64,000 bases of DNA. Source: an uncultured Acidobacteriota bacterium (GTDB taxonomy: Bacteria > Acidobacteriota > Thermoanaerobaculia > Gp7-AA8). Position numbers and translations under genes: made by a program. Below, piece by piece: positions 31,744-55,808 of the stretch; position 1 is the stretch's first letter; the number at the start of each line of letters is the position of its first letter. The notes beneath the pieces were generated by a model that saw only the letters and a list, made by a program, of their open reading frames with translations, was not told the DNA's origin and did no database searches. Location of the stretch: assembly GCA_963741955.1 (NCBI GenBank), contig CAVUKB010000007.1, forward strand, positions 992,001 to 1,056,000, in the 5' to 3' direction.

Positions 31744-33816
<2,073 letters not shown>

Positions 33817-34224: not shown

Positions 34225-34270
34225 GGGGGCAGTGCGCCCTCTCCGTGCCGAACAAGCGGAGGATCTTTTC

Positions 34271-36730
<2,460 letters not shown>

Positions 36731-38615: not shown

Positions 38616-38865
38616 GGTGTTCCTCCGTGGTTCTTCGGACCCTTTGTTCGTTCCGAAGCGAAATCACTGCTTACTTTCGTCTCGATTCTTCTTCTTTTTC
38701 GGATCGATCGACTCTCTCATTTCGCAACTGTGGTGCCAGCCGCACTCGACCTGTGACAGCTGTCACTGAAGGGGAAGAGTAGGGGTGAGACATTACGCGA
38801 GGAAAGACGGTCCGACGCTCGACGGCACCCGCGGCCGGGGGCGACACGCCGGAATCAGGTCCCCA

Positions 38866-39957
38866 GTGAACTCTCTGATCACCAACGAATTACCGTTCCG
38901 GGAATTCATGGAGCGTGCGCTCTATGACTCCGCCGGTGGCTACTACACGAGGAGCCGGAATCCCGTCTCGAAGAGCGGAGATTACCTGACCTCGAACGCG
39001 ATCTCTCCCGTTTTCGCATTCGCGCTCGCTCGTCTCGTGGACGACTTCGTGAAGCATTCAGGCGACGAACTGTGCGCGATCGTGGACATCGGATGCGGCG
39101 ACGGACAGCTGATCCAGCGCATCGCGGAGCAGACCGATCGACGCTATCGTGACCATTGCGTTTTCTTCGGGATCGACCGTTCTCTCGAGCGTATCGACGA
39201 AGCGATGCGCGAGGACGGGTTCGCTCAGTATCGCGAGACGCTCGACGGCGTTCCCTTCGACATCCCGGTGCTGATCCTCTCGAACGAGCTGTTCGATGCC
39301 TTCCCGGTGGCGCGACTGGTCCAGCGCGGCAAAGAGCTCCACGAGCTGTGGGTCACACCCGTCGGAGAAGGTCTCGACTGGACCGAGCTCCCTGCGCCGG
39401 ACGCGTACGCCGGCTACTTCGCCGACCGACGGATCGCTCTGGATGACGGACAGTTTGCCGACGTCTCGCTCGACTGGAGCGGGCACTACTCCCTTCTCGC
39501 GGAGAAGCTCGAGCGGGGACTGATCGTGACCTTCGATTACGGATGTGCTCAGGAGCAACTGTTCAACCCGCGGTTCAGGCGGTACGGAACCGCTGCGGCC
39601 TACTCGCAGCACCGGTTCAACCGCGACCTGCTCGCCAACCCGGGCGGCCAGGACCTGACCGCACAGATCAATTTCACCGATCTCTGGACCGCCGGAGAGC
39701 GGAACGGAATGTCGACCCTGGCCTTCGAGCGGCAGGCGCGGTTCCTCCTCTCTCTCGGCATACTCGAGCACCCGGTTTTCAAGCCGTCGGAAGCCTCCGG
39801 CGGTGGTACGCTGGAGAGCACCATCGCAGGAACGGAGGAGCGGCAGGCGGCCCAGCGGCTGGTCCTCCCTGATGGTATCGGCGACGAGCTCCGGGTTCTC
39901 GTGCAATCGAAGGGCTACCCGCGTGCCGGGTGGCGGTTCCTGGAGAGGCCTTTCTGA
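38866..39957 (+). CDS. MidA/NDUFAF7-family SAM-dependent methyltransferase
   Basis: F.EFME.ALY...GGYY, GDYLTS, DIGCGDG, SNELFDAFP, DYG, PG.QDLTA..NF, LV.P.G.G..L.VL. Confidence 0.88.
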   Translation: MNSLITNELPFREFMERALYDSAGGYYTRSRNPVSKSGDYLTSNAISPVFAFALARLVDDFVKHSGDELCAIVDIGCGDGQLIQRIAEQTDRRYRDHCVFFGIDRSLERIDEAMREDGFAQYRETLDGVPFDIPVLILSNELFDAFPVARLVQRGKELHELWVTPVGEGLDWTELPAPDAYAGYFADRRIALDDGQFADVSLDWSGHYSLLAEKLERGLIVTFDYGCAQEQLFNPRFRRYGTAAAYSQHRFNRDLLANPGGQDLTAQINFTDLWTAGERNGMSTLAFERQARFLLSLGILEHPVFKPSEASGGGTLESTIAGTEERQAAQRLVLPDGIGDELRVLVQSKGYPRAGWRFLERPF

Positions 39958-40020: not shown

Positions 40021-40380
40021 ATGGCAAATTACTCCATTCTCCCGATCGCAATTCTGATCGTCCTGTCGCTTCCGATCATCACTCTGTTCGTGATCACCCC
40101 GCTCGTTCGGGCGTCCCGAGCTTCGAAAGTGAAGCTCGAGCCTTACGAGTGCGGTGTCGAGGCGACCTCCTTCGCGTTCGACCACCGCTTCTCGGTTCGG
40201 TACTTCCTCATCGCGGTGCTCTTCATCGTCTTCGACGTCGAAACGATCTTCCTCTTTCCCTGGGCGATCCGTTTCCGCCAGCTCGGCTGGTTCGGGGCGA
40301 TCGAGATGGGCCTGTTCATCGCGATTCTCCTGGTCGGCTATTTCTACGCGTGGAAACGAAAGGTGCTGTCATGGGTCTGA
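40021..40380 (+). CDS. nuoA: NADH-quinone oxidoreductase subunit A
   Basis: [26 protein letters not shown]. Confidence 0.97.
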
Positions 40381-41336
40381 TCGAAAACCGCTTCGAGGAG
40401 AACATCCTCACGACGACGGTCGACAGGATCTTCAACTGGGCACGGAGATCGTCTCTCTGGCCGATGCAGTTCGGTCTCGCATGTTGCGCCATCGAGATGA
40501 TGGCGGTGCTCGATCCCCGTCACGACATGGCGAGATTCGGCGCCGAAGTCTTCCGGGCCACGCCGCGCCAGTCGGATCTGATGATCGTCGCCGGAACCGT
40601 GGCCGAGAAGATGGCTCCGATCGTCAAGCGGCTGTACGACCAGATGCCCGATCCGAAATGGGTCATCGCCATGGGATCGTGTGCGACGTGCGGTGGACCC
40701 TACGATACCTACGCCGTGACTCAGGGCGTCGACCGGCTCATCCCGGTGGACGTCTACATCCCCGGCTGCCCGCCGCGTCCCGAAGCTCTCCTGTGGGGGC
40801 TGATGGAGCTCCAGAAGAAGATCGACAAGATGCACGTCCTCCGCAAGGGCGGCGCGGCATACGACTTCGCCCGCCAGGCGGTGCGTGACGTCGTGCGCCC
40901 GCTCCACGAAGGTCCCGCGATCCGGATCAGTGACGCCGCAGCCGAACCGGCCGAAGCTTCCACCCCGGCTGCAGAACCCACTGCCGCGAGCCCGGCTCCG
41001 GCCGAAACGTCTCCTCGAACTGAAGCCCCGGCCCCGCTCCCTGCGCCGACCGGCGCATCCGCCGACGCCGCGTTCCACGACCAGGCGCTCACTCTCGCCG
41101 AGCGGATGAAGCTCGCCGAGGAATCGGGTGGCGGAGTGGTGGCGAAGATGTGGGCCTCGCTGGCACAGACCGACTGCGGCGCGTGCGGATGGGACTGCGA
41201 AGGATACGCGAAGGCCCTCGACGCCGGCGAAGAGAAGGACATCTCGCTCTGCGTTCCCGGCGAGGCGGAAACGATCGAAACGCTCAAGAAGCTGATGGCC
41301 GAAGCCGGCCGGGAGTACACGGTCGGAGCGGCGTAA
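40371..41336 (+). CDS. nuoB: NADH-quinone oxidoreductase subunit B with Pro/Ala linker and C-terminal extra 4-Cys Fe-S domain
   Basis: [37 protein letters not shown]; C-term [20 protein letters not shown]...ISLCVPG. Confidence 0.95.
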
Positions 41337-41358
41337 GCCCCGACGGAGGATCGTCAGA

Positions 41359-42117
41359 ATGGCCGAGGAAACGGAAAAAGTCGAAAAGGCCGAGAAGCCG
41401 GCAGCAGCGGCAGCTCCCGAAAAGCCCGCTGCGCGAACCGTGGACGAGATCCTCGCGGATCCCGCGATCAGTGCGGCCATGGCCGACGTCCGGAGCGCGA
41501 TCATCGACGCACGCGAGTTCGCGGGCGAGATGATTCTCACCGTCGAGAGCTCCCGCATCCGCCAGGTCTGCGAAACGCTCGCGCGCGAAGGCTTCAACTA
41601 TCTCGTGAACCTCTGCGGCGTCGATTACTCGACGTATCCCGGCCACACCGGCGCGCGATTCGCCGTCGTCTATCACCTCTATTCGTTCGCGAAGAACGTC
41701 CGGATCGAGCTCAAAGCCTTCGTTCCCGACGGCGGGAGCATCCCCTCGGTCGTCGCGGTCTGGAAGACGGCGAACTGGCACGAGCGCGAGACGTACGACA
41801 TGTACGGGATCGAATTCGAAGGACATCCGAACCTCGAGCGAATCCTCACCTGGGATGGCTTCAACGGTCATCCGCTCCGCAAGGACTTCCCGCTTCGCGG
41901 AATCGACACCGGCGCGAGGATCTATCCGGAAGTCTTCCCTGAAGGCGGCGGTCCGATGAAGGGATCGACCGGCAAAGCGCCCGACGACGTGAACCTCTGG
42001 GGTGGCGACTGGAAACTCTTCGGCCGCGGCCCGGTGATCGCCCCCGACACCGATTCATCCCACGCTCTGCCGGCCGCTGCAGATGACGGCAACGGCTCGA
42101 AGCCGAGTGGAGAGTAA
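41359..42117 (+). CDS. nuoC: NADH-quinone oxidoreductase subunit C
   Basis: LCGVDY, RFAVVYHL, ANWHERE.YDMYGI.F.GHP.L.RIL, GHPLRKDFPL. Confidence 0.96.
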   Translation: MAEETEKVEKAEKPAAAAAPEKPAARTVDEILADPAISAAMADVRSAIIDAREFAGEMILTVESSRIRQVCETLAREGFNYLVNLCGVDYSTYPGHTGARFAVVYHLYSFAKNVRIELKAFVPDGGSIPSVVAVWKTANWHERETYDMYGIEFEGHPNLERILTWDGFNGHPLRKDFPLRGIDTGARIYPEVFPEGGGPMKGSTGKAPDDVNLWGGDWKLFGRGPVIAPDTDSSHALPAAADDGNGSKPSGE

Positions 42118-42120
42118 GTC

Positions 42121-43236
42121 ATGCTGAATCTGGAAGAAATGGAAGTGAACTTCGGCCCTCAGCACCCGTCGACTCACGGCGTGCTGCGGCTCCTGCTGAA
42201 GATCGACGGTGAACGGATCGTCGAGGCGAAGCCGGTGATCGGCTATCTCCACCGCGGAACCGAGAAGCTGTTCGAGAACATGACCTATCCGATGTGCGTG
42301 CCGCACACCGACCGGATGGATTACGTCGCGTCCGCGACGAACAACCTCGGCTTCGTCGAGACGGTCGAGAAGCTGATGGGGATCACCGACGGCATTCCGA
42401 AACGCGCGCAGCTGATGAGGGTGATGCTCTCCGAGCTCCAGAGGATCTCGTCCCATCTCCTCTGGCTCGCCACGCACGCGATCGACCTCGGCGCGATGAC
42501 TCCCTTCTTCTACACCTTCCGGGAGAGAGAAGAGATTCTCGACCTCTTCGAGGAGTACTGCGGCGCCCGGCTGACACTCAATTGCATGCGGATCGGTGGT
42601 ATGCCGGACGACCTCACTCCGAACTGGCTGGAGAAGGTCGAAGCGTTCGTCGACAAGTTCGAAGCGGCGGTGGACGAATACGAGTCGCTCCTCACCAACA
42701 ATCGCATCTGGAGGCGCCGCACCATCGGCATCGGTGTGATCTCGCCGGAAGAGGCGATCGACTGGGGTCTGACCGGTCCTCCTCTGCGCGGCTCCGGAGT
42801 GAAGTGGGACATCCGGCGCGCGCTTCCGTACGAGTGCTACCCGGAGCTCGAGTTCGAGATCCCGATCGGAAAGAACGGCGACACGTACGACCGCTACATC
42901 ATCAGGATGATCGAGATGCGGCAGTCGAACCGGATCCTGAAGCAGTGCATCCCGATGGTGCGCGAGACGCCGGAGGGAGACATCAAGGCGAAGATCTCCA
43001 AGGTCGTTCGTCCGCCGGAAGGGGAGGTCTACCACTCGATCGAGAGCCCGAAGGGAGAGCTCGGCTACTACATCGTCGCAGACGGGAAGGCGACCAGCGC
43101 GTACCGCTGCCACGTCCGTCCCCCTTCGTTCGTGAATCTGCAGGCGCTTCCCGCGATGGCCGAGGGGCATCTGGTCTCCGACCTGGTGGCTCTGATCGGA
43201 ACCATCGACATCGTGCTCGGTGAAGTGGACCGGTAA
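42121..43236 (+). CDS. nuoD: NADH-quinone oxidoreductase subunit D
   Basis: NFGPQHPSTHGVLRL, GYLHRGTEK, DRMDY, ESPKGE, DIVLGEVDR. Confidence 0.98.
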   Translation: MLNLEEMEVNFGPQHPSTHGVLRLLLKIDGERIVEAKPVIGYLHRGTEKLFENMTYPMCVPHTDRMDYVASATNNLGFVETVEKLMGITDGIPKRAQLMRVMLSELQRISSHLLWLATHAIDLGAMTPFFYTFREREEILDLFEEYCGARLTLNCMRIGGMPDDLTPNWLEKVEAFVDKFEAAVDEYESLLTNNRIWRRRTIGIGVISPEEAIDWGLTGPPLRGSGVKWDIRRALPYECYPELEFEIPIGKNGDTYDRYIIRMIEMRQSNRILKQCIPMVRETPEGDIKAKISKVVRPPEGEVYHSIESPKGELGYYIVADGKATSAYRCHVRPPSFVNLQALPAMAEGHLVSDLVALIGTIDIVLGEVDR

Positions 43237-43248
43237 GGAAAGAGAACC

Positions 43249-44334
43249 ATGACGAGCGCACTTCTGAATTTCGCAGTCGCGCAGGCGAGCGAGCCGGGGC
43301 CGCTGATGCGGTACCTGGTCTGGCCGACGATCAAGTTCCTGATCGCCTTCGCGGTCGTGGCGACCATCGTCGCGCTGATGACCTGGGTCGAGCGCCGGAT
43401 GCTCGGCTTCATGCAGGCCCGGTTGGGCCCGAATCGCGTCGGACCGTGGGGCCTGTTCCAGGCCATCGCCGATCCGATCAAGCTCCTCCTCAAAGAGGAC
43501 ATCGTTCCTTCGCGTGCCGAGAAGGTGGCCTATTTCCTCGGGCCGATGATTCCGATCATCCCGGCCTTCGTCGTCTTCGCGCTGATTCCGTTCGGTCCGC
43601 CCCCGACGTTCACCATCACCTCGGTCAACGTCGGCCTGCTGCTGATCGTCGCTCTCACCTCGACCGGCGTGTACGGGATCATCCTTGGCGGGTGGGCTTC
43701 CAACAGCAAGTACTCACTGATGGGCGGGCTCCGGTCGGCCGCGCAGGTCGTCTCGTACGAGGTTCCGTTCGGACTGTCGCTGGTCGGCGTGCTGATGCTG
43801 TCGGGAAGCTTCGATCTGGTGCAGATCGTCCGCTACCAGGAAAACAACGTCTGGAACGTGATCCCGCAAATCGTCGGAGCGTTCATCTTCCTCGTGGCGA
43901 TGACCGCGGAATCGAACCGCACGCCGTTCGACCTGCCGGAAGCGGAGTCGGAGCTGGTGGCCGGATTCCACACCGAGTACTCCGGGATGAAGTTCGCGTT
44001 CTTCTTCCTCGCGGAGTACGCCTTCATGCTGGTGAACTCCTGCCTGATCGTCACCCTCTTTTTCGGTGGATGGACCCTCGCGATGTACGGACACGGACTG
44101 ACGACGCACACCCTCGTCGGGATGGGTGTCTGGGGTGCGGCGCTCGGTCTTCTGATCTTCGCGGTGAAGGTCGCGTTCTTCATGGTCACCTACGTCTGGT
44201 TCCGCGGAACGTTCCCGAGGTTCCGCTTCGACCAGTTGATGGATCTCGGATGGAAATGGCTGATTCCTCTCGCCCTGGCGAACATCATCGTCACCGGCGT
44301 GGTCGTGCTTTCGTTGCAGTCAGTGAGGGTTTGA
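43249..44334 (+). CDS. nuoH: NADH-quinone oxidoreductase subunit H
   Basis: ERR..G.MQ.R.GPNRVGP.G..Q..AD..K, SYE, AE.NR.PFDLPEAESELV.G..TEYSG. Confidence 0.98.
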   Translation: MTSALLNFAVAQASEPGPLMRYLVWPTIKFLIAFAVVATIVALMTWVERRMLGFMQARLGPNRVGPWGLFQAIADPIKLLLKEDIVPSRAEKVAYFLGPMIPIIPAFVVFALIPFGPPPTFTITSVNVGLLLIVALTSTGVYGIILGGWASNSKYSLMGGLRSAAQVVSYEVPFGLSLVGVLMLSGSFDLVQIVRYQENNVWNVIPQIVGAFIFLVAMTAESNRTPFDLPEAESELVAGFHTEYSGMKFAFFFLAEYAFMLVNSCLIVTLFFGGWTLAMYGHGLTTHTLVGMGVWGAALGLLIFAVKVAFFMVTYVWFRGTFPRFRFDQLMDLGWKWLIPLALANIIVTGVVVLSLQSVRV

Positions 44335-44335
44335 C

Positions 44336-44860
44336 ATGAGTCAGGTCGCCAGATGGTCGGACAAGATTCTGCTGCTCGATTTCTTCGAGGGGCTGAAGAC
44401 CACGTTCAAAGAGCTCTTCCGGAAGAAGGTCACCATCGAGTATCCGGAGAAGCGGATGGAGCCGGCGGACCGGTTTCGCGGAATGTTCCGTTTCAATTAC
44501 GAGCGCTGCATCGCGTGCAAGCTCTGCGCGCTGGCCTGCCCGATCGACATCATCTACATCGACGTCCACGACGAGACGCAGGAAGTCGACGGGAAGAAGA
44601 AGAAGATCAAGGTGCTGGACCGTTACGACATCGACGTGAAGCGATGCATGTTCTGCGGGCTCTGTGAGGAAGCCTGTCCGACCAAGCCGAAATCGATCTG
44701 GCTCACCACGCAGACTTACGAGCTCGCGACGTACGACCGCAACGAGCTGTATTTCAACATGCAGGAGCTCGAGTACTGGCAGGAGCGTCCCTCCTACAAG
44801 ACACTCGAAGAGTCAGCAGACGAGGCCGGGATCAAAGCCCTGCCGCGAGGAGGTGAGTGA
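44336..44860 (+). CDS. nuoI: NADH-quinone oxidoreductase subunit I
   Basis: T.EYPE, CIACKLCALACP and CMFCGLCEEACP. Confidence 0.96.
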   Translation: MSQVARWSDKILLLDFFEGLKTTFKELFRKKVTIEYPEKRMEPADRFRGMFRFNYERCIACKLCALACPIDIIYIDVHDETQEVDGKKKKIKVLDRYDIDVKRCMFCGLCEEACPTKPKSIWLTTQTYELATYDRNELYFNMQELEYWQERPSYKTLEESADEAGIKALPRGGE

Positions 44861-45543
44861 TGGACGGCTGGATCCATCTGATGCCATCGGTGCTCTTCTT
44901 CGTGATCGGCGCCATCGCCGTCGCTTCGAGCATTCTGGTCGTGGCGATGCGCAACCCGGTGCACTCGGCGCTGTTCCTTCTGGTGACGTTCCTCTCGGTG
45001 GCCGCGCTCTTCATCATGCAGGGAGCGGAGTTCGTCGGAGCGGTTCAGATCCTGGTCTACGCCGGCGGAATCATGGTTCTGTTCCTCTTCGTGGTCATGC
45101 TGATCAACGTGCGCACCATCCGGACCGAGAGGACCTTCTCGCCGTTCTGGGTCGGTGCGATCTTCGTCGGTGCCGCTGTTCTCCTCCTTCTCTCCGTGGT
45201 GGTGGAACGCGGAGCTCTGCATCCGGCGGTCGGTGATCCGGCGATGCTCCGGACCGCGATGGTCCAGGAGACCGTGTTCGTGACCACTCCCGAAGGCGCG
45301 GTGGTTCAGCGTCAGGAGGAGCGGCCGCGGGTGGTCGGCAACTCCGAAGCGGTGGGGATGGAGCTCTATCGCAAATACCTCGTGCCGTTCGAAGTGGCCT
45401 CGGTGTTCCTCCTGGTCGCCATGATCGGCGCGATCGTCATCGGCAAACGCGAGCTGAGCGCAGAAGAAGAGGAAGCGATTCCCGAATACATCCGCAAGCG
45501 CGTGGCCGACGAAAAGCGCATCAAGGAGGCCCTCGGTGCCTGA
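44860..45543 (+). CDS. nuoJ: NADH-quinone oxidoreductase subunit J
   Basis: NPVHSAL.L, QILVYAGGIMVLFLFVVML, PFE..S..LLVAMIGA. Confidence 0.96.
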   Translation: MDGWIHLMPSVLFFVIGAIAVASSILVVAMRNPVHSALFLLVTFLSVAALFIMQGAEFVGAVQILVYAGGIMVLFLFVVMLINVRTIRTERTFSPFWVGAIFVGAAVLLLLSVVVERGALHPAVGDPAMLRTAMVQETVFVTTPEGAVVQRQEERPRVVGNSEAVGMELYRKYLVPFEVASVFLLVAMIGAIVIGKRELSAEEEEAIPEYIRKRVADEKRIKEALGA

Positions 45544-45838
45544 CACCTCTGCATTCCTCCTCCTCTCCGCCACCATCTTTTCCATCGGTCTGGTCGGCGT
45601 GGTGGTTCGGAGAAACATGATCACGGTCCTGATGTGCATCGAACTGATGCTCAACGCCGTGAATATCAATTTCGTGGCATTCGCCTCACGCCTTTCGAAT
45701 CTCGAAGGCCACATCTTCCCGATCTTCGTCATCACGGTCGCGGCGGGTGAGGCGGCGGTGGGTCTCGCCATCATCATTCAGTTCTACCGGCTCGAGAGCA
45801 GCGTCAATGTCGACGAGGCCCGGGAGCTGAACGGCTGA
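45536..45838 (+). CDS. nuoK: NADH-quinone oxidoreductase subunit K
   Basis: RRN.I..LM.IELMLNAVN, VAAGEAAVGLA. Confidence 0.96.
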   Translation: MPDTSAFLLLSATIFSIGLVGVVVRRNMITVLMCIELMLNAVNINFVAFASRLSNLEGHIFPIFVITVAAGEAAVGLAIIIQFYRLESSVNVDEARELNG

Positions 45839-45849
45839 CGCGGGGATCA

Positions 45850-48087
45850 ATGATGAATATCGGATCGATTCTCTGGCTCATCCCCACCCTTCCCGCTCTC
45901 GGCGCGCTGATCAACGGTCTGCGTGCGGTGTCGAGCCGGGAAGCGAAGAACCGCGCCGTGACCAACGCGTTCGCGCTCGGCACGACTGCCCTGTCGGCCC
46001 TGATCGCCACTGCGGTGGTGCTGCTCTATGTCCGGCACGGCATCCACGAAGCGGTCGAGGTGGCCTACTACCACTGGATCCCCTCCGGCATGGGTGAGGT
46101 TCTGAAGGGAAGCTTCATCGCGAACTTCAACGTCGACCTCGCGTTTCGCGTCGACACCCTCTCCTCGGTGATGATGATGGTCGTCACCTGGGTCGGGTTC
46201 CTGATTCACGTCTACTCGGTGGGGTACATGGCCCACGAGAAGGGCTACACCCGCTTCTTCGCTTATCTCAACCTCTTCATGTTCATGATGCTGTTGCTCG
46301 TGATGGGCAACAACTACATCGTGATGTTCGTCGGTTGGGAGGGCGTCGGACTCTGCTCGTATCTCCTGATCGGGTTCTACTACGACAAGAACTTCGCCGC
46401 GGACGCCGGGAAGAAGGCGTTCATCACCAACCGGATCGGCGATTTCGGGTTCCTTCTCGGAGTCTTTCTCATCTTCAACTACTTCGGGACGGTCGATTTC
46501 ACGAAGGTCTTCGCCCTGGCGAGCGCATATCCGAGCCAGTACGCGGGAGTGGCCACGGCGATCGGCATCTTCCTGTTCATCGGCGCGTGCGGAAAGTCCG
46601 CACAGATTCCTCTGTACGTGTGGCTTCCTGACGCCATGGCCGGCCCCACCCCGGTCTCGGCACTGATCCACGCCGCGACGATGGTCACCGCGGGCGTCTA
46701 CATGGTGGTGCGGTCGAACGTGCTCTACCGACTTTCGCCGGCCGCGATGGCGGTGGTCGCCATCGTCGGTGCGCTGACCGCGATCTTCGCGGCGAGCATC
46801 GGCCTGATGCAGAACGACATCAAGAAGGTGCTCGCTTACTCCACCGTCTCGCAGCTCGGATACATGTTCATCGGCGCGGGTGTCGGAGCGTTCACCGCGG
46901 CCATCTTCCACCTGATGACGCACGCTTTCTTCAAAGCCTGCCTCTTCCTCGGCGCCGGATCAGTCATTCACGGATGCGGCGGCGAGCAGGACATGCGGAA
47001 GATGGGCGGTCTCCGGAAGTACATGCCGAAGACCCACTGGACGTTCCTCGTGGCGACGCTCGCGATCTCCGGTATTCCTCCGCTGGCGGGCTTCTTCTCC
47101 AAGGACGAGATCCTCGCGAGCGCATTCCTGCAGCGGTTCGACACGCTTCCCGCTCCCTGGAATCACGCGCCGCAGATCGCCTGGGTCCTCGGAACGGTGG
47201 CCGCGATCTTCACCGCGTTCTACATGTTCCGCCTCTACTACATGACCTTCCACGGGAAGTATCGCGGCGCATTCATCGAAGGAGTGGTGGAGTCGGAGCC
47301 GTCGCACGGAGGTCACGATCTGATCGACGACCACACCCATCTCGACGTCGCCGCGGGAAGCGGTCATCATCCTGCGCCGTCCGGCAAGGGCCACGGGCAT
47401 CACGACGACGCGCATGCGACGCCTCACGAGTCGCCGTGGACGATGACCGGAGTGCTCGCAGTGCTCGCGACGCTCGCCGCCATCGGTGGCCTGATCGGGC
47501 CGCCGCTCGCCGCGTTCGGGATGCACACGGAGAATCCGTTCCAGAAATTCCTCGAGCCGGTGCTCGCGCCGATCGGAGGTCATTCCTTCGAATTCATCGA
47601 GGCGAGCTCGATCGGGATGGACTGGTTCCTGATCGCGTTCTCGGTGCTGGCTGCGGTGTTCGGCATTCTCGTCGCGCGCCGGTGGTACAAGAGCGATCCC
47701 GACTGGGCGATTCCGACCCGTCTCGCGCTCCGTTTCCCCGGCTTCTACAAGCTCGTCGCGAACAAGTACTACGTAGACGAGATCTATCAGGCCACGGTCA
47801 TCCGCGGGACCCTGTTATTCAGCTGGATGCTGGCCTGGTTCGACAGTCACGTCGTGGACGGGCTGGTGAATCTGACCCGTCACGTCACGGTGATCTTCTT
47901 TGGTGAAGGATCCTCGCTGTTCGACAGGTTCGTCGTCGACGGTGCGGTCAACGGTGTGGCCTTCACGGCGAAAGGCGGCTCCGCGCTGCTGCGGAGAGTT
48001 CAGAGCGGGTTCGTTCAGAAGTACGCCCTGATCATGGGTGGTGGAGTGGTCTTCATGGTTGCCCTCTACCTGGTGATGAGACTCTGA
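45850..48087 (+). CDS. nuoL: NADH-quinone oxidoreductase subunit L, with lengthened amphipathic arm
   Basis: YS.GYM, GWEGVG.CSY.LIGF, GKSAQ.PL..WLPDAM.GPTPVSALIHAATMV, HAFFKA, FFSKD; duplicated FD..VVDG.VN motif. Confidence 0.97.
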   Translation: MMNIGSILWLIPTLPALGALINGLRAVSSREAKNRAVTNAFALGTTALSALIATAVVLLYVRHGIHEAVEVAYYHWIPSGMGEVLKGSFIANFNVDLAFRVDTLSSVMMMVVTWVGFLIHVYSVGYMAHEKGYTRFFAYLNLFMFMMLLLVMGNNYIVMFVGWEGVGLCSYLLIGFYYDKNFAADAGKKAFITNRIGDFGFLLGVFLIFNYFGTVDFTKVFALASAYPSQYAGVATAIGIFLFIGACGKSAQIPLYVWLPDAMAGPTPVSALIHAATMVTAGVYMVVRSNVLYRLSPAAMAVVAIVGALTAIFAASIGLMQNDIKKVLAYSTVSQLGYMFIGAGVGAFTAAIFHLMTHAFFKACLFLGAGSVIHGCGGEQDMRKMGGLRKYMPKTHWTFLVATLAISGIPPLAGFFSKDEILASAFLQRFDTLPAPWNHAPQIAWVLGTVAAIFTAFYMFRLYYMTFHGKYRGAFIEGVVESEPSHGGHDLIDDHTHLDVAAGSGHHPAPSGKGHGHHDDAHATPHESPWTMTGVLAVLATLAAIGGLIGPPLAAFGMHTENPFQKFLEPVLAPIGGHSFEFIEASSIGMDWFLIAFSVLAAVFGILVARRWYKSDPDWAIPTRLALRFPGFYKLVANKYYVDEIYQATVIRGTLLFSWMLAWFDSHVVDGLVNLTRHVTVIFFGEGSSLFDRFVVDGAVNGVAFTAKGGSALLRRVQSGFVQKYALIMGGGVVFMVALYLVMRL

Positions 48088-48165
48088 CCGGCGGCAATGA
48101 CATTCGGTCCACGTACTGAAATGACTGCCGTCCCGTGACGGCGAATGAGTGGAGACGCAACGTCC

Positions 48166-49812
48166 ATGGGCATCTACAATTCAGGATTTCCGATTCTCTC
48201 GCTGATCACTTACCTGCCGCTGGTGGGTTCGCTGATCATCGTCTTCCTGGTTCCGAAAGAGAAGACGAAGACGATCAAGACGGTGGCCACCGTGATCGCC
48301 GGACTCGATCTCGCTCTGACCATTCCGCTCTGGTGGGCATTCAACTCGAGCGGCACGGGTGCGGGACTCTTTCAGTTCCAGGAGCACCACGCATGGATTC
48401 CGTCCCTCGGCGTCGAGTACTTCTTCGGAATCGACGGAATCGCGCTCCTGCTGATCTTCCTCACCAACGTGATGGGGCTGATCGCCGTCTATTCGTCGTT
48501 CTCGGCGATCGAGCATCGGGAGAAGGAGTACTACACGCTGATGCTGATGCTGCAGACCGGCATGCTCGGCGTCTTCTGTGCCCTCGACTTCTTCCTCTTC
48601 TACGTCTTCTGGGAAGTGATGCTGGTGCCGATGTACTTCCTGATCGGAGTCTGGGGAGGCCCCCGCAAGCTCTACGCAGCGATCAAGTTCTTTCTCTACA
48701 CTCTGGCCGGTTCGGTCCTGATGCTGCTGTCGATCCTGACGCTCTACTTCTACAACAGCGGCGGCATCCCGTTCTTCGGGATCAAGGGGCTCGGGAACCC
48801 GGCGACCTTCAACGTCCTCCAGTACCACGAGATCGGACACCTCATCCCGCCGGGCCTGCAGTTCTGGATCTTCCTCGGCTTCTTCTTCGGGTTCGCGATC
48901 AAGGTGCCGATGTTCCCGTTCCACACCTGGCTGCCTGACGCGCACGTCGAGGCTCCCACGGCCGGTTCGGTGATCCTGGCGGCCGTCCTCCTGAAGATGG
49001 GAACCTACGGATTCGTTCGGTTCTCGCTGCCGATTCTTCCCGACGCGACGAAACAGCTGGTCGTTCCGATCATCGTGCTGGCGATCATAGGCATCATCTA
49101 CGGTGCCCTGGTGGCGATGGTACAGAAGGACATGAAGAAGCTCGTCGCGTACTCCTCGGTGTCGCATCTCGGGTTCGTGATGCTGGGCATGTTCGCCCTC
49201 AACCCGATGGGTCTCAAGGGGTCAGTGCTGCAGATGGTCAATCACGGACTCTCGACCGGTGCACTCTTCCTTCTGGTCGGACTGGTCTACGAGAGACGCC
49301 ACACCCGTCTGATCGCGGAATACGGTGGCCTCGCGAAGCAGATGCCCATCTTCGCGACGCTCTTTCTGATCGCAACGCTCTCGTCGATCGGACTCCCGGC
49401 GTTGAACGGATTCGTCGGCGAGTTCACCATCCTGATCGGCGCCGCCAACCGCAGTCTGGTCTGGGCCGTCTTCGCGGCGACAGGCATCGTCCTCGGCGCG
49501 GCGTACATGCTCTGGCTCTACCAGAGGGTGTTCTGGGGTCCGCTCGACAATCCCGCCAACCGCACGCTCAAGGATCTCAACGCGCGCGAGATCTGGACTC
49601 TGGTCCCGATCGTCGCCTGCATGTTCTGGATCGGTCTCTATCCGGCTCCGTTCTTCAAGCTCCTCGACAAGCCGGTCGACTACCTGGTGCAGAAGGTCGA
49701 CCCGGGCTACTACCAGAGAGAGCAGATGGCGTATCCGGTTCCGGCCGAACACGAAATGCCGACTCCTGCCGCCGCGCAGGTGATGCCCGAGGGTTCTCAT
49801 GCAATGGAGTGA
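48166..49812 (+). CDS. nuoM: NADH-quinone oxidoreductase subunit M
   Basis: FYVFWE..L.PMY.LIG.WG, K.P.FP.HTWLPDAH.EAPT.GS..LA..LLK.G.YG, AYSS.SH.G; start 48166 (or 48145). Confidence 0.97.
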   Translation: MGIYNSGFPILSLITYLPLVGSLIIVFLVPKEKTKTIKTVATVIAGLDLALTIPLWWAFNSSGTGAGLFQFQEHHAWIPSLGVEYFFGIDGIALLLIFLTNVMGLIAVYSSFSAIEHREKEYYTLMLMLQTGMLGVFCALDFFLFYVFWEVMLVPMYFLIGVWGGPRKLYAAIKFFLYTLAGSVLMLLSILTLYFYNSGGIPFFGIKGLGNPATFNVLQYHEIGHLIPPGLQFWIFLGFFFGFAIKVPMFPFHTWLPDAHVEAPTAGSVILAAVLLKMGTYGFVRFSLPILPDATKQLVVPIIVLAIIGIIYGALVAMVQKDMKKLVAYSSVSHLGFVMLGMFALNPMGLKGSVLQMVNHGLSTGALFLLVGLVYERRHTRLIAEYGGLAKQMPIFATLFLIATLSSIGLPALNGFVGEFTILIGAANRSLVWAVFAATGIVLGAAYMLWLYQRVFWGPLDNPANRTLKDLNAREIWTLVPIVACMFWIGLYPAPFFKLLDKPVDYLVQKVDPGYYQREQMAYPVPAEHEMPTPAAAQVMPEGSHAME

Positions 49813-51250
49813 TCTGGTTTTCCTGCTGCCGGAGATCGTCCTCTTCGCCGGGGCGTCTCTACTGCTGCTCGCTCCCTTCGTCGGATTCCGGCGTGAAGGC
49901 CGCGACGCGAAGTGGATGACGCTCGGTGTCCTGGTCGGTACCGCGGTGGCGCTGACTCTGACGGCATTGTCGACTGCAGTCCCGAGCGCCTCACTCGATG
50001 CGATGTTCGTCAGTGACGGGTTCGCGAGCTTCTTCAAGATTCTGCTGCTGGTGATCATCGGAATCGTGGTGCTCCTCTCTTCCGACTTTCTCGCGGAAGG
50101 GAAGTACTCTCCGTGGGAGTACTACTCGCTGATGCTCTTCGCCCTCGCGGGAATGTTCTTCATGGCCTCCGGGATCCACCTGATCTCGATCTGGATCGGA
50201 CTGGAGCTGATGTCGCTCTCGAGCTACATCCTGACCGGCTATTACAAGGCGGAGAAGAAGTCGACCGAGGCGGCGATGAAGTACTTCATCCTCGGTGCGA
50301 TGAGCTCGGCCATTCTCCTCTACGGTGTTTCGCTCATTTACGGGGTCACCGGATCGCTCGGGCTCTCGGATATCCGGCATGCCCTCGCGGCAGGAGCGGG
50401 GCAGGTGGTGATGGCCGGAGTGATGCTGCTCGGAGCGGGACTCTGCTTCAAGGTCGCGGCGGTGCCGTTCCATGCATGGACGCCCGACGTGTACGAGGGG
50501 GCGCCCACTCCCATCAGCGCGTTTCTCTCCACCGCTTCGAAGGCGGCGGCATTCGCGATGTTCGCCCGCATCTTCTACGAGGCGCTTCCGGACATCCACG
50601 TGAACTGGAGCCTGGTGATCGCGATCATCTCCGCCATGACCATGATCGTCGGCAACGTCGCGGCGATGATCCAGGACAACGTGAAACGGATGCTCGCGTA
50701 TTCGTCGATCGGACATGCGGGCTACGCGCTGCTCGGAATTCTCGCCATGAGCGAGATCGGCCTCTACTCGGTGCTGATCTACATGGTCGCGTACGCGTTC
50801 GCCAATCTCGGCGCGTGGGCGACGGTGATGGTCCTCCAGCGTCACGAGTATGCCGGCGAGAGCGTCGCCGACTTCGAAGGGCTCCACCAGCGGGCTCCGT
50901 TCTACGCATTCTCGATGGTGATCTTCCTCCTCTCGCTCGGCGGCATTCCTCCGCTGGCCGGATTCCTCGGGAAGTACTTCCTCTTCGCCGCGGCGATTCA
51001 GGCCGGATACGCGTGGCTCGCGGTGATCGCGGTGCTGATGTCGGCCGTGTCGATCTACTACTACTTCCGGATCGTAGTCGCGATGTACCTGAAGGAAGGT
51101 AAGCCTGCGGAGGTGGTGATCACCCGCTCGCTGCGGTTCGCGGTGGCGTTCTGTCTGGTGGCGACGATCGTCCTCGGCATCGCGGCGGAGCCTCTGATCG
51201 GAGGCGTGAGGCACTCGCTGCAGACGATCGTGGTGACTTTCCTCCGCTGA
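49799..51250 (+). CDS. nuoN: NADH-quinone oxidoreductase subunit N
   Basis: LEL.SL..Y.L, EAA.KYF..GA, FK...VPFH.W.PDVY.GAP, KRMLAYSSI.H.GY, SL.GIPP..GF..K. Confidence 0.97.
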   Translation: MQWSDLVFLLPEIVLFAGASLLLLAPFVGFRREGRDAKWMTLGVLVGTAVALTLTALSTAVPSASLDAMFVSDGFASFFKILLLVIIGIVVLLSSDFLAEGKYSPWEYYSLMLFALAGMFFMASGIHLISIWIGLELMSLSSYILTGYYKAEKKSTEAAMKYFILGAMSSAILLYGVSLIYGVTGSLGLSDIRHALAAGAGQVVMAGVMLLGAGLCFKVAAVPFHAWTPDVYEGAPTPISAFLSTASKAAAFAMFARIFYEALPDIHVNWSLVIAIISAMTMIVGNVAAMIQDNVKRMLAYSSIGHAGYALLGILAMSEIGLYSVLIYMVAYAFANLGAWATVMVLQRHEYAGESVADFEGLHQRAPFYAFSMVIFLLSLGGIPPLAGFLGKYFLFAAAIQAGYAWLAVIAVLMSAVSIYYYFRIVVAMYLKEGKPAEVVITRSLRFAVAFCLVATIVLGIAAEPLIGGVRHSLQTIVVTFLR

Positions 51251-51260
51251 TTCATCGCCG

Positions 51261-53945
51261 GGCGCGCGAAAGTGGGTCGCGCGTCCCGCGCGAGGCTCGC
51301 ACAGTGGGTCGCGCACAGTGGGTCGCGCACAGTGGGTCGCGCGTCCCGCGCGAGGCTCGCCGGCATCGTGCCGGCGAGCGATGGCGTCAACGCCGCGCGG
51401 ATCGTTCCTCTCGCGATGTGGTGTGTTCGTGTCTCCTTACTCGGGAGGACCGTCGTATCCTGCCCGGAGGCAGGACGGCGCGGGACGCCGCCCTGCATCG
51501 GGCGAGACGCCCAACCCACTTTGGCCGCCCTGCACAGTGGGTCGCGCGAAAGTGGGTCGCGCGTCCCGCGCGAGGCTCGCCGGCATCGTGCCGGCGAGCG
51601 ATGGCGTCAACGCCGCGCGGATCGTTCCTCTCGCGATGTGGTTTGTTCGTGTCTCTTTACTCGGGAGGATCTGCGTATCCTGTCCGGGGGCAGGGCGGCG
51701 CGGGACGCCGCCCTGCCCCGGACGGGACGTCCAACCCACTGGGCATCGGGCGAGACGCCCAACCCACTTTGGCCGCCCTGCACAGTGGGTCGCGCGAAAG
51801 TGGGTCGCGCGTCCCGCGCGAGGCTCGCCGGCATCGTGCCGGCGAGCGATGGCGTCAACGCCGCGCGGATCGTTCCTCTCGCGATGTGGTTTGTTCGTGT
51901 CTCTTTACTCGGGAGGATCTGCGTATCCTGTCCGGGGCAGGGCGGCGCGGGACGCCGCCCTGCACAGTGGGTCGCGCGTCCCGCGCGAGGCTCGCCGGCA
52001 TCCTGCCGGGGAGCGATGGCGTCAAAGAAACGCAGATTGCTCCTCTCGCGATGTGGTGCGTTCGTGTCTCTCGACTCTCGGGACGATCCTCGCATCTCGC
52101 ACCGAACAGGGCGGCGCGGGACGCCGCCCTGCATCGGGCGAGACGCCCAACCCACAGACATGGGTCGCGCACAGTGGGTCGCGCGTCCCGCGCGAGGCTC
52201 GCCGGCATCGTGCCGGCGAGCGATGGCGTCAACGCCGCGCGGATCGTTCCTCTCGCGATGTGGTTTGTTCGTGTCTCTTTACTCGGGACGATCTGCGTAT
52301 CCTGTCCGGGGGCAGGGCGGCGCGGGACGCCGCCCTGCACAGTGGGTCGCGCGTCCCGCGCGAGGCTCGCCGGCATCGTGCCGGCGAGCGATGGTGTCAA
52401 CCCCGCGCGGATCGTTCCTCTCGCGATGTGGTTTGTTCGTGTCTCTTTACTCGGGAGGATCTGCGTATCCTGCCCGGGGGCAGGACGGCGCGGGACGCCG
52501 CCCTGCATCGGACGGGACGTCCAACCCACTGGGCATCGGGCGAGACGCCCAACCCACTTTGGCCGCCCTGCACAGTGGGTCGCGCGTCCCGCGCGAGGCT
52601 CGCCGGCATAGTGCCGGCGAGCGATGGTGTCAACGCCGCGCGGGTCGTTCCTCTCGCGATGTGGTTTGTTCGTGTCTCTTTACTCGGGAGGATCTTCGGA
52701 TCCTGTCCGGGGCAGGGCGGCGCGGGACGCCGCCCTGCACAGTGGGTCGCGCGTCCCGCGCGAGGCTCGCCGGCATCGTGCCGGCGAGCGATGGTGTCAA
52801 CCCCGCGCGGATCGTTCCTCTCGCGATGTGGTCTGTTCGTGTCTCTCTACTCGGGAGGACCTGCGTATCCTGTCCGAGGCAGGACGGCGCGGGACGCCGC
52901 CCTGCACAGTGGGTCGCGCGTCCCGCGCGAGGCTCGCCGGCATCGTGCCGGCGAGCGATGGTGTCAACACCGCGCGGATCGTTCCTCTCGCGATGTGGTT
53001 TGTTCGTGTCTCTTTACTCGGGAGGACCGTCGTATCCTGTCCGAGGCAGGACGGCGCGGGACGCCGCCCTGCATCGGACGGGACGTCCAACCCACTTTGG
53101 CCGCCCTGCATCGGGCGGGACGCCCAACCCACTGGGCATCGGACGGGACGTCCAACCCACAGACATGGGTCGTGCACAGTGGGTCGCGCGTCCCGCGCGA
53201 GGCTCGCCGGCATCGTGCCGGCGAGCGATGGTGTCAACCCCGCGCGGATCGTTCCTCTCGCGACGTCGTTTGTTCGTGTCTCTTTACTCGGGAGGATCCG
53301 CGTATCCTGTCCGAGGCAGGGCGGCGCGGGACGCCGCCCTGCCTCGGACGGGACGTCCAACCCACTGGGCATCGGACGGGACGCCCAACCCACTTTGGCC
53401 GCCCTGCACAGTGGGTCGCGCGCAGTGGGTCGCGCGTCCCGCGCGAGGCTCGCCGGCATCGTGCCTTCGAGCGATGGCGTCAACGCCGCGCGGATCGTTC
53501 CTCTCGCGATGTGGTTTGTTCGTGTCTCTTTACTCGGGACGATCTGCGTATCCTGCCCGGGGGCAGGGCGGTGCGGGACGCCGCCCTGCATCGGACGGGA
53601 CGTCCAACCCACTGGGCATCGGACGAGACGCCCAACCCACTTTGGCCCGCCCTGCACAGTGGGTCGCGCATCCTGCGCGAGGCTCGCCGGCATCGTGCCG
53701 GCGAGCGATGGTGTCAACCCCGCGCGGATCGTTCCTCTCGCGACGTGGTTTGTTCGTGTCTCTTTACTCGGGAGGACCGTCGTATCCTGCCCGGGGGCAG
53801 GACGGCGCGGGACGCCGCCCTGCATCGGGCGAGACGCCCAACCCACTGGGGATCGGGCGAGACGCCCAACCCACTGGGATCGGGCGAGACGCCCAACCCG
53901 CTGGGGATCGGACGAGACGCCCAACCCACTTTGGCCCCCCTGCAT
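51261..53945. repeat. Tandem array of ~12 units of ~167 bp built from REP-like hairpins (BIME/REPIN-like mosaic)
   Basis: Units begin GTGGGTCGCGCGTCCCGCGCGAGGCTCGCCGGCATCGTGCCGGCGAGC near 51331, 51551, 51799, 51966, 52173, 52341, 52574, 52741, 52908, 53178, 53424, 53658, with variable numbers of GCATCGGGCGAGACGCCCAACCCACT modules between them. Confidence 0.95.
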
Positions 53946-54013
53946 CGTTCAGGACCAACGCCGGTGCGCGATCCCTCCGCCCGCGCTACAATGCGCCGCC
54001 GGAACGTATTGCC

Positions 54014-54220
54014 ATGCCTGACAAAAACAAGAAGGACATGCGCCAGATGCTCGAGCTCTCTTCGATCGGCTTCATGTTCCCGATCGCGATCGGGCTCGGT
54101 TTTCTCTGGGGGTGGGGGATGGACCGGCTGTTCGGAACCTACCCCTGGTTGACGGCGATCTTCTCCGGTCTCGGAATCATCGCGGCATTCGTGAATCTGT
54201 TCCGGATGACGAAGGAATGA
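54014..54220 (+). CDS. atpZ: AtpZ/AtpI-family (ATPase gene 1) protein
   Basis: SSIG...PIAI.LG...G..MD..FGT.PW......LG..AAF; heads the F0 operon. Confidence 0.88.
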   Translation: MPDKNKKDMRQMLELSSIGFMFPIAIGLGFLWGWGMDRLFGTYPWLTAIFSGLGIIAAFVNLFRMTKE

Positions 54221-54714
54221 GCGGGCCGACGGAGGGACCGCAGTCCCCCGAGCCGAATGGCGAAGGCGGGCCGTCCATCGAGGACGTCCCGGACGTTCCG
54301 CCCCCACAGGTCCCGCCGCCGCCGACTCCGGAGGAAACGGAGGAAGAGCGGCGGGGGGTGACCCGGCGGATCCGGAAGATCGCGATCGGGGCCTATTTTC
54401 CGATCGCGGCCTGGTATCTGATCCATGCGGATTGGGGATCGTTCGGTGGATTGACTTGCAGTGCAGCGGTGGCTATCATCAACTTCCTTTGGCTGGAGGG
54501 CCTGGTGGTCAAAGTTCTCCGGCCGGCGCCGCGGGTGAATGCGTGGAGGATGGTGGTGAGATCCCTCGCGCGCTTCATTCTCTTCGGAGTGGCGCTGTCG
54601 GTCGTCATCATCGTAGCTCGTTTCAATGCGATCAGTGTGTTGCTGGGATTCTCGATCATCGTCATCGGGATCATGGGAGAGGCCTGTTACGAGGCCTGGA
54701 ACGCGAAAGAATAG
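54217..54714 (+). CDS. atpI: ATP synthase I chain-like membrane protein
   Basis: Four TM helices with NF.WL motif, located between atpZ and atpB. Confidence 0.75.
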   Translation: MSGPTEGPQSPEPNGEGGPSIEDVPDVPPPQVPPPPTPEETEEERRGVTRRIRKIAIGAYFPIAAWYLIHADWGSFGGLTCSAAVAIINFLWLEGLVVKVLRPAPRVNAWRMVVRSLARFILFGVALSVVIIVARFNAISVLLGFSIIVIGIMGEACYEAWNAKE

Positions 54715-54736: not shown

Positions 54737-55438
54737 ATGGAACATCAGCACTCGATTCTCTACGGTCCTTTCAATTGGGTCTGGCACAAGCTGGGCTTTG
54801 CCTGGGACGTTCCGGACCACGTGGTCATGGCGCTTCTGGTCTTCGCGATCTGCGCCGTGCTCCTTCCGCTCGTCTCCAGGAGCTTCAGCCGGGACGACCC
54901 CGGCCACTTTCAGCAGTTTCTCGAGTACATCATCGGTGGACTCAGGAATCTGCTCGAAGACGTCGTCGGTCACGGCTCGGAACGATATCTCGACCTGATC
55001 GGCGCCCTGACCGTCTTCATCTTCATCTCGAATATTTTCGGCCTCTTCTTTTTCCTTCAGCCGCCGACCGCGAACGTGAACACCACGTTCGGGCTGGCCA
55101 TCTGCGCGTTCCTCTATTACAACTTCCACGGGATCCGCGCTCAGGGCCCGCTCCACTATCTCAAGCACTTCGGCGGCCCGGTCTGGTGGCTCGCGCCGCT
55201 GATGTTTCCGATCGAACTGATCGGACACTTCGCGCGCATCCTTTCACTCGGCGTCCGTCTGTTCGGCAACATCTTCGGCGAGCACACCGCGACCGGGATC
55301 TTCGTCGGCCTGATGCCATTCGTGATTCCCTGGCCGATGATGGGGCTCGGTATCTTCGGCGCCGTCCTCCAGACCTTCATCTTCGTCATGTTGACCATGG
55401 TCTACATCGGTGGCGCCGTGGCCACCGAAGAACATTGA
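54737..55438 (+). CDS. atpB: F0 ATP synthase subunit a
   Basis: P...Q...E, PPTAN.N, PIE.I.H..R.LSL..RLFGNI, LQ.FIF..L...Y. Confidence 0.96.
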
Positions 55439-55484
55439 TCTCTACCTTTACCAGTCTCGAATTCTTGAAAGGAGGAATCCTCAG

Positions 55485-55808
55485 GTGAAGCATCTGAAAA
55501 CCATCATGCTGTTCGTGCTCGTCGCGCTCTCGGCGACCGCGATGTTCGCGCAGGCCGAGCCGGCCGCCGCTGCTACGGTTCACACCGGTGTGCAGTGGGG
55601 TCTGATCTCGGCGGCCTTCGTCCTCGGTCTCGCTGCCTTCGGCGGCGCGCTCGGACAGGGAAAAGCCATTGCTGCGGCCTGCGAAGGCATCGCGCGCAAC
55701 CCCGGCGCTGCCGGCGCGATCCGTCTCGCGATGATCATCGGTCTCGCACTGATCGAGTCGCTCGTCATCTACGCACTCGTCATCGCGTTCATCGTCCAGG
55801 CGAAGTAA
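55485..55808 (+). CDS. atpE: F0 ATP synthase subunit c with N-terminal signal-like extension
   Basis: GTG start after an AGGAGG RBS; [10 protein letters not shown]...EGIARNP...[11 protein letters not shown]. Confidence 0.95.

Follow-up and report, generated by a model that had tools for sequence, protein, structure and literature searches.

The window analyzed here is a stretch of 64,000 nucleotides (nt) from the genome of an uncultured bacterium belonging to the Acidobacteriota, class Thermoanaerobaculia (GenBank assembly GCA_963741955.1, contig CAVUKB010000007.1, positions 992,001 to 1,056,000; genome of 5.4 Mb, 99.1% complete). It harbors an operon encoding an 11-gene complex I, and in the lateral helix of the NuoL subunit encoded by this operon, a module of 27 residues is present twice as the result of an ancient tandem duplication. 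The doubled arm is the standard form of NuoL in a large multi-phylum clade, in the operons of which nuoM is nearly always a single gene, and the window locus is an ordinary member of this long-arm, one-nuoM clade. A tentative explanation, which in our estimation falls somewhat short of an even chance and is based on sequence comparisons, is that the product of the single nuoM gene may be seated twice in the same enzyme, which would then include four pump modules in the order L-M-M-N.

The duplicated module in the lateral helix of NuoL

The nuoL gene (45850..48087, + strand; 745 amino acids (aa)) is located between nuoK and nuoM, as expected of a NuoL gene. Its product matches the Pfam families Proton_antipo_N, Proton_antipo_M and Proton_antipo_C, the core giving E-values of 3.5e-20 with PF00662 and 4.9e-88 with PF00361. 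The AlphaFold2 (AF2) model, the predicted local distance difference test (pLDDT) score of which is 84.9 overall and 50-62 over aa 681-745, shares the fold of the solved NuoL/Nqo12/NdhF1 chains over aa 2-690 (Z 48-52, root-mean-square deviation (rmsd) 1.6-5.4 Å), the best solved matches being NdhF1 (6hum_F) and bacterial NuoL. The C-terminal lateral helix ending in a separate transmembrane helix 16 (TM16) is present in the window NuoL, judging from the AF2 model and from the alignment of motifs with the solved chains. The amphipathic lateral helix is predicted to extend over aa 620-719 (47707..48006, + strand) in four segments (aa 620-628, 630-637, 639-685, and 691-719), interrupted by a predicted break at aa 686-690, where the pLDDT is below 50. 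The predicted TM16 (aa 722-744; 48013..48081, + strand) is preceded by an R-x-x-Q-S-G entry motif.

An initial annotation made from the sequence alone had reported that the C-terminal helix contains the same motif twice, 81 nt apart, where ordinary NuoL contains it once, and both observations were borne out. FDSHVVDGLVN occupies aa 664-674 (DNA from 47839) and FDRFVVDGAVN aa 691-701 (DNA to 47952), which places them exactly 81 nt, or 27 aa, apart. Module 1 (aa 664-690; 47839..47919, + strand) carries the first docking motif, D-x4-DG-x-VN, while module 2 (aa 691-717; 47920..48000, + strand) is the extra 27-residue unit and carries the second. Between NKYYVDE and QSG, the window NuoL has 73 residues, versus 46 in its own canonical paralog, encoded by a second complex I operon on contig C5 of the same genome; the window arm is thus 27 residues longer, and it exceeds the arms of Escherichia coli NuoL and of all the solved NuoL/NdhF proteins by the same 27 residues. 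In the alignment of NuoL sequences (A2), the E. coli protein and five other short-arm NuoL proteins carry one copy of the motif and show a gap of 26-27 columns opposite the extra unit of 13 long-arm sequences. The NKYYVDE helix start, the docking motif, and the TM16 entry motif are shared with the canonical NuoL/Nqo12/NdhF1 of E. coli (3rko/7p61), T. thermophilus (4he8), P. denitrificans (8qby), and T. elongatus (6hum), whereas these proteins have a single docking module instead of two.

When the helix profile of 87 long-arm NuoL sequences was compared with itself, a peak was obtained at an offset of 27; the module-versus-module score of 16.6 was reached by none of 20,000 column shuffles (z 8.3). 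In 6hum_F (NdhF1), 8qby_L (Paracoccus Nqo12), and 6tjv_F (NdhF3), one single stretch of the chain matches both copies of the motif. At the DNA level, the two copies share 24 of the 33 bases of the motif but only 32 of the 81 bases of the whole unit, and this low agreement over the unit points to an old tandem duplication kept at the protein level rather than to a recent DNA repeat. In the 87 sequences, which come from about ten phyla, D665 of module 1 is invariant and D670, G671, V673, and N674 are conserved in at least 90%, as are D692, V696, D697, G698, V700, and N701 of module 2. The entry motif of TM16, R-x-x-Q-[ST]-G-x-x-x-x-Y-A, is common to the long- and short-arm NuoL proteins; its G and Y are invariant and its R near-invariant in alignment A2.

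The window NuoL also has a His-rich insert in the loop between TM14 and TM15 (aa 477-521; 47278..47412, + strand), which appears as a gap in the alignment, has a pLDDT below 50 at aa 481-521, and is absent in the canonical paralog.

Distribution of the long arm and number of nuoM genes

The arrangement downstream of nuoL is that described in the initial annotation, namely a single nuoM followed directly by nuoN. The stop codon of nuoL ends at 48087, and the operon's only nuoM (48145..49812, + strand; Proton_antipo_M, 5.2e-81) starts at 48145 or alternatively at 48166, 9 nt upstream of which a GGAG is present. The nuoN gene (49799..51250, + strand; Proton_antipo_M, 2.8e-74), the best match of which is the N gene of the relatives, overlaps nuoM by 14 nt. 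The window nuoM shows 71-77% identity with the M gene of the relatives' operons.

Full-length orthologs of the window NuoL were identified in 19 genomes of the same family, with 64-73% identity over residues 2-744 (one of these 19 sequences, G022, was left out of the later analysis). In the 36 relatives' loci fetched, one of which (L070) is broken into pieces, all the long-type NuoL sequences carry both copies of the motif, and two full-length M genes were found in none of the loci. A scan of one genome per species, based on the C-terminal alignment with an acidobacterial query, was restricted to the best 80 of more than 551 matches, so that the proportions given below are biased while the breadth is real. 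After removal of duplicates, 101 distinct NuoL sequences of at least 600 aa were available, 94 of which have the long arm. Measured from NKYYVDE, the tail is 77-82 aa long in 6 sequences, 104-114 aa in 93 (108 aa in the window NuoL), and 149 aa in L138. The long-arm NuoL of L138, a member of the Thermodesulfobacteriota, has about 40 extra residues after TM16, including another hydrophobic helix.

The genes following the 94 long-arm nuoL genes are organized as L-M-N in 77 cases, plus one L-M-N in which M is split (L115); three are L-M-M-N, one is L-M-M, and the 12 others are cut short or have no N nearby. Complete runs from L to N with a long arm thus include one nuoM in 78 cases and two in three cases, and the survey of relatives proposed in the initial annotation showed that the long arm with a single nuoM is widespread. 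Operons of this kind occur in Acidobacteriota, Myxococcota, Binatota, Bacillota, Latescibacterota, Eiseniibacteriota, Thermodesulfobacteriota, and Methylomirabilota, and a cultured carrier is available, Minicystis rosea DSM 24000 (CP016211.1, locus L147), which has a long arm, one M, and one N. The long-arm operons mostly comprise 11 genes and lack nuoEFG; the gap between nuoD and nuoH is 300 nt or less in 57 of the 59 loci holding both genes. In one acidobacterial clade (L107, L123, L133), the long-arm nuoL and nuoM form a pair and the 20-kb locus holds no other nuo gene; a lone third antiporter-like gene is present elsewhere in these genomes.

The L-M-M-N organization was found in L116 (Anaerolineae), L146 (an Olavius symbiont), and L154 (Thermodesulfobacteriota), and the L-M-M run in L151 (Nitrospiraceae), where it stops at the end of the contig. 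In the L154 cluster, nuoD and nuoH are 5.2 kb apart. The NuoL proteins of these four clusters carry both modules and have a tail of 105-108 aa, as compared with 104-114 aa in the one-nuoM operons and 77-82 aa in the canonical ones. Describing the arm as a signature of the 2M type, as the initial annotation did, was therefore correct in that the arm is the same as in the four two-nuoM clusters, but in this sample the 78 complete runs with one nuoM, versus three with two, show that it is not a sign of a second nuoM. The M proteins encoded by the long-arm operons group in a single clade (support 100), which excludes the canonical M proteins and inside which the two-M pairs arise. The identity between M1 and M2 is 80% in L116, where they are sisters (Shimodaira-Hasegawa-like approximate likelihood ratio test 99), 52% in L146 and L154, and 30% in L151. 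Next to an arm that had already been doubled, nuoM therefore underwent at least two independent duplications. A fresh nuoM duplicate encodes the same protein, and the seat of the second M must therefore either have existed beforehand or have evolved later.

The FastTree phylogeny of NuoL is unrooted and places four of the seven short-arm outgroup sequences on the wrong side, so that it gives no order of gain or loss of the module; in this tree, short- and long-arm NuoL proteins from the same genome group with each other. In three genomes of the class (both nuoL genes of L064; L066/L075; L065/L076), the long- and short-arm NuoL proteins of the same genome are 77-83% identical over their first 470 aa, as compared with 54-65% between the orthologs of these genomes over the whole protein and 65% for the pair in the window genome. 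This suggests that copying or gene conversion may have occurred between paralogous nuoL cores with different arm lengths.

The 2M complex I (Chadwick, Hemp, Fischer and Orphan 2018, ISME J 12:2668), as described in later papers (PMC9040806, PMC6606698, PMC11636273, PMC12342949), is defined by a second NuoM and a lengthened NuoL helix. The window NuoL resembles this system in that the extra 26-27 residues of its helix occupy the position that they have in the four two-nuoM clusters, and the window NuoM belongs to the same clade as their M1 and M2; in addition, the window operon lacks nuoEFG, as has been reported for the Nitrospira cluster. The defining second NuoM is missing, however, the operon having one nuoM and the genome none to spare. 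A closer parallel is found in Complex_I_1 and Complex_I_2 of Ca. Manganitrophaceae, which according to Yu et al. (2022, mBio, PMC9040806) have a 26-residue insertion in the NuoL helix, no extra NuoM, and otherwise canonical-like features. The insertion is called curious there, and these enzymes are described as perhaps already able to take an extra pump or as being in transition. They share with the window locus a lengthened helix beside a single nuoM, the position of the insertion being taken as the same from the wording of that paper, but the Manganitrophaceae belong to the Nitrospirota and the window operon, which comes from an acidobacterium, has 11 genes and no nuoEFG. In the literature searched, a lengthened NuoL with no second NuoM was mentioned only in PMC9040806, although Chadwick et al. 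(2018) may already treat such clusters. The window locus thus matches a pattern which has been known but unexplained since Yu et al. (2022). The canonical operon on contig C5 has paralogous L, M, and N genes (L 65% identical over the first 470 aa, M 48% identical) and differs from that of the window in having nuoG and other N-module context, as well as a one-module helix in its NuoL (645 aa).

The initial annotation had also considered that a second nuoM might lie elsewhere, might have been collapsed during assembly, or might have been lost. PF00361 was matched at nine places in the genome, all of which are accounted for: L, M, and N of the window, L, M, and N of the canonical operon, two antiporter-like genes in a hydrogenase-like cluster (contig C4), and one in an Mrp-like cluster (C5). 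No orphan or spare nuoM was present among these nine matches in the 99.1%-complete genome. The idea that a fourth antiporter-like subunit might be borrowed from elsewhere, either the canonical NuoM or a protein encoded in the Mrp-like or hydrogenase-like cluster, is unlikely to be correct: six further PF00361 genes do exist in the genome, and the L107, L123, and L133 pairs located away from other nuo genes indicate that nuo subunits need not cluster, but the canonical NuoM shares only 48% identity with that of the window and belongs to a complete operon of its own. Moreover, a second nuo operon is missing from the long-arm genome G042, its five PF00361 matches consisting of L, M, N, and one separate pair, and genome G048 (completeness not given) has three PF00361 matches in all.

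It is even less probable, indeed very improbable, that two near-identical nuoM genes were collapsed into one during assembly or that nuoM was recently lost from a 2M operon, and no support was found for either. Exactly matching contigs from the probable source sample bridge nuoL and nuoM (47088-48920, depth 9.44) as well as nuoM and nuoN (48906-51292, depth 13), with a depth of 10.4 for nuoL and no sign of a collapsed copy; these depths are those of contigs from the same sample as the assembly and hence not independent of it. Runs X2 and X3 contributed only small shares (0.17 and 0.10) in short pieces. The one-M order is normal in this clade, being found throughout the 36 relatives' loci and in the 78 distinct complete runs, which argues against a recent loss, as does the position of the two-M pairs inside a single clade of long-arm NuoM.

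Possible subunit arrangements along the doubled arm

In the arrangement which we tentatively favor, the doubled arm would act as a molecular ruler along which four antiporter-like modules are lined up as L-M-M-N. Module 1 would dock on the first M and module 2 on the second, both being products of the same gene, while TM16 would dock on NuoN as it does in ordinary complex I, and one proton more would be pumped per turnover than gene counting suggests. The two-nuoM operons would be later duplications, after which the two existing seats would have become specialized. With the same reservations, every 11-subunit complex I of the clade (Acidobacteriota, Myxococcota, Binatota, Bacillota, and others) might be a four-pump enzyme that translocates five protons per turnover.

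Several findings are consistent with this arrangement. The two copies of the motif are equally conserved, which suggests that the second copy binds something. In alignment A2, D563-P564-L565-N566 of E. coli aligns with the motif region within about 3 residues, and the kink in the E. coli helix is its contact with NuoM according to Belevich et al. (2011, PMC3274701). The entry motif of TM16 is kept in both the long and short forms, which suggests that its docking site on NuoN is unchanged. Both modules, with a tail of equal length, are also found in the true two-nuoM clusters, and the independent duplications of nuoM took place beside an arm that was doubled already. The window genome has no nuoM to borrow apart from that of the canonical operon, and G042 lacks even a second nuo operon. 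The AF2 monomer counts for less: its module 1 superposes on the whole canonical helix, while module 2 and TM16 never superpose (none of the 50 comparisons extends past residue 704).

Other findings weigh against the double seating of NuoM. The AF2 model can be superposed on the solved chains only up to residues 650-704, in a region of low pLDDT (50-62), and the superposition test is itself weakened by the control model of the canonical paralog, the TM16 of which was superposed in only 10 of 50 comparisons, with an rmsd of 5.1-7.3 Å, so that the superposition speaks neither for a looped-out nor for an extended module. Among the 11 distinct PDB sequences found at E ≤ 1 with the profile of the C-terminal 130 aa, none matched it over its full length. 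We know of no complex I in which one gene product is used at two seats. The ratio of 78 to three complete runs makes three genes for three pumps the simplest reading. A protein with a double role might be expected to be more highly conserved, but this holds only in Thermoanaerobaculia and is not general. In four genomes of this class, the identity in the transmembrane core is 71.3% for the long-arm M versus 63.7% for the long-arm L, as compared with 58.9% and 63.2%, respectively, for the canonical M and L of the same genomes. In 10 non-acidobacterial one-M long-arm operons, no extra conservation of NuoM was observed (M 55.6% versus L 56.3%; M exceeds L in 17 of 45 pairs). Lastly, the E. coli helix tolerates insertions of 6-7 residues at some sites, as reported in PMC3274701, and extra length therefore need not mean an extra subunit.

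Almost as likely as the L-M-M-N arrangement is a three-pump L-M-N enzyme with a longer brace, in which the doubled helix would merely stabilize the arm. Module 1 would lie on NuoM and module 2 on the homologous site of NuoN or on lipid; TM16 would be anchored one subunit-width further in, near NuoK/J/A, unless the extra module bends back, and the two-nuoM enzymes would later have exploited the spare module. In addition to the numbers of nuoM genes in the 81 complete runs and the 36 relatives' loci, the tolerance of the E. coli helix to some insertions, and the lack of generally stronger conservation of NuoM, this proposal is favored by the homology between M and N, either of which might accommodate the motif, and by the predicted break at aa 686-690, which could be a hinge. 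TM16 would need a new docking site, however, although its entry motif is conserved with the canonical forms. The length of NuoJ is similar in one-M (168-185 aa) and two-M (167-182 aa) operons, which is a mild point against TM16 having moved onto NuoJ and not a proof; the 228-aa NuoJ of the window is a local feature. The arm of the true 2M enzymes is equally long, so that a brace would have no spare length to give unless part of it had been idle before, and the conservation of both motif copies across many phyla argues for a specific partner.

Genomic setting and implications

Based on the Pfam matches and the list of open reading frames (ORFs), the genes of the window operon are organized in the order nuoA-B-C-D-H-I-J-K-L-M-N (40021-51250). 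The operon has no nuoE, nuoF, or nuoG, and nuoH directly follows nuoD, which identifies an 11-gene complex I lacking the NADH module nuoEFG. The genes preceding nuoL are all on the + strand: nuoA (40021..40380; Oxidored_q4, E 2.6e-33), nuoB (40380..41336; Oxidored_q6, 2.2e-28; FeS, 1.4e-05; and translation), nuoC (41359..42117; Complex1_30kDa, 2.9e-45), nuoD (42121..43236; Complex1_49kDa, 3.9e-102), nuoH (43249..44334; NADHdh, 1.9e-122), nuoI (44336..44860; Fer4 families), nuoJ (44857..45543; Oxidored_q3, 6.8e-44), and nuoK (45536..45838; Oxidored_q2, 8.5e-30). The nuoB ORF is open from 40149, but the likely start is after the nuoA stop codon, giving a protein of about 318 aa.

NuoB has a Pro/Ala-rich linker followed by a C-terminal 4-Cys PF04060 "FeS" domain (at about 41160-41258). 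This domain was matched in 21 of the 24 genera of the family; in at least one relative (G005), it is present on both NuoB (345 aa, L162:727-1764) and NuoC (334 aa, L162:1775-2779), and in genome G025 it occurs four times in succession. In an enzyme lacking NuoEFG, this domain might serve as a built-in entry point for electrons.

The region is a bioenergetic gene neighborhood. About 60 nt upstream of nuoA lies a Methyltransf_28 (PF02636) gene (38785-39957), also found ahead of the operon in several other loci and belonging to the same family as NDUFAF7, an assembly factor of mitochondrial complex I. Two membrane H+-pyrophosphatase genes are located in tandem further upstream (31744-33816 and 34232-36730), and ATP synthase Fo genes downstream (atpI-like, 54112-54714; subunit c, 55410-55808). 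In the interval between nuoN and the atp genes (51260-53960), a unit of 167-270 nt containing a GC-rich palindrome is present in 12-13 direct copies over 2.7 kb; the 982-aa and 944-aa ORFs in this array are repeat artifacts. The unit gave 260 blastn matches at approximately 50 places in the genome, roughly 35 of which have 3-13 matching segments; in Rfam, no family was found for the array, which gave only one sub-threshold chance hit.

In genome-based bioenergetics, the H+/e- ratio of complex I is derived from the number of antiporter-like genes. If two NuoM subunits are present per enzyme, this ratio would be underestimated in a large group of soil and sediment bacteria, and complex I would join the enzymes whose hetero-oligomers arose from the repeated use of one subunit. 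If the doubled arm is only a longer brace, the length of the helix could no longer be taken, as it has been hitherto, to support the presence of an extra subunit in the enzyme.

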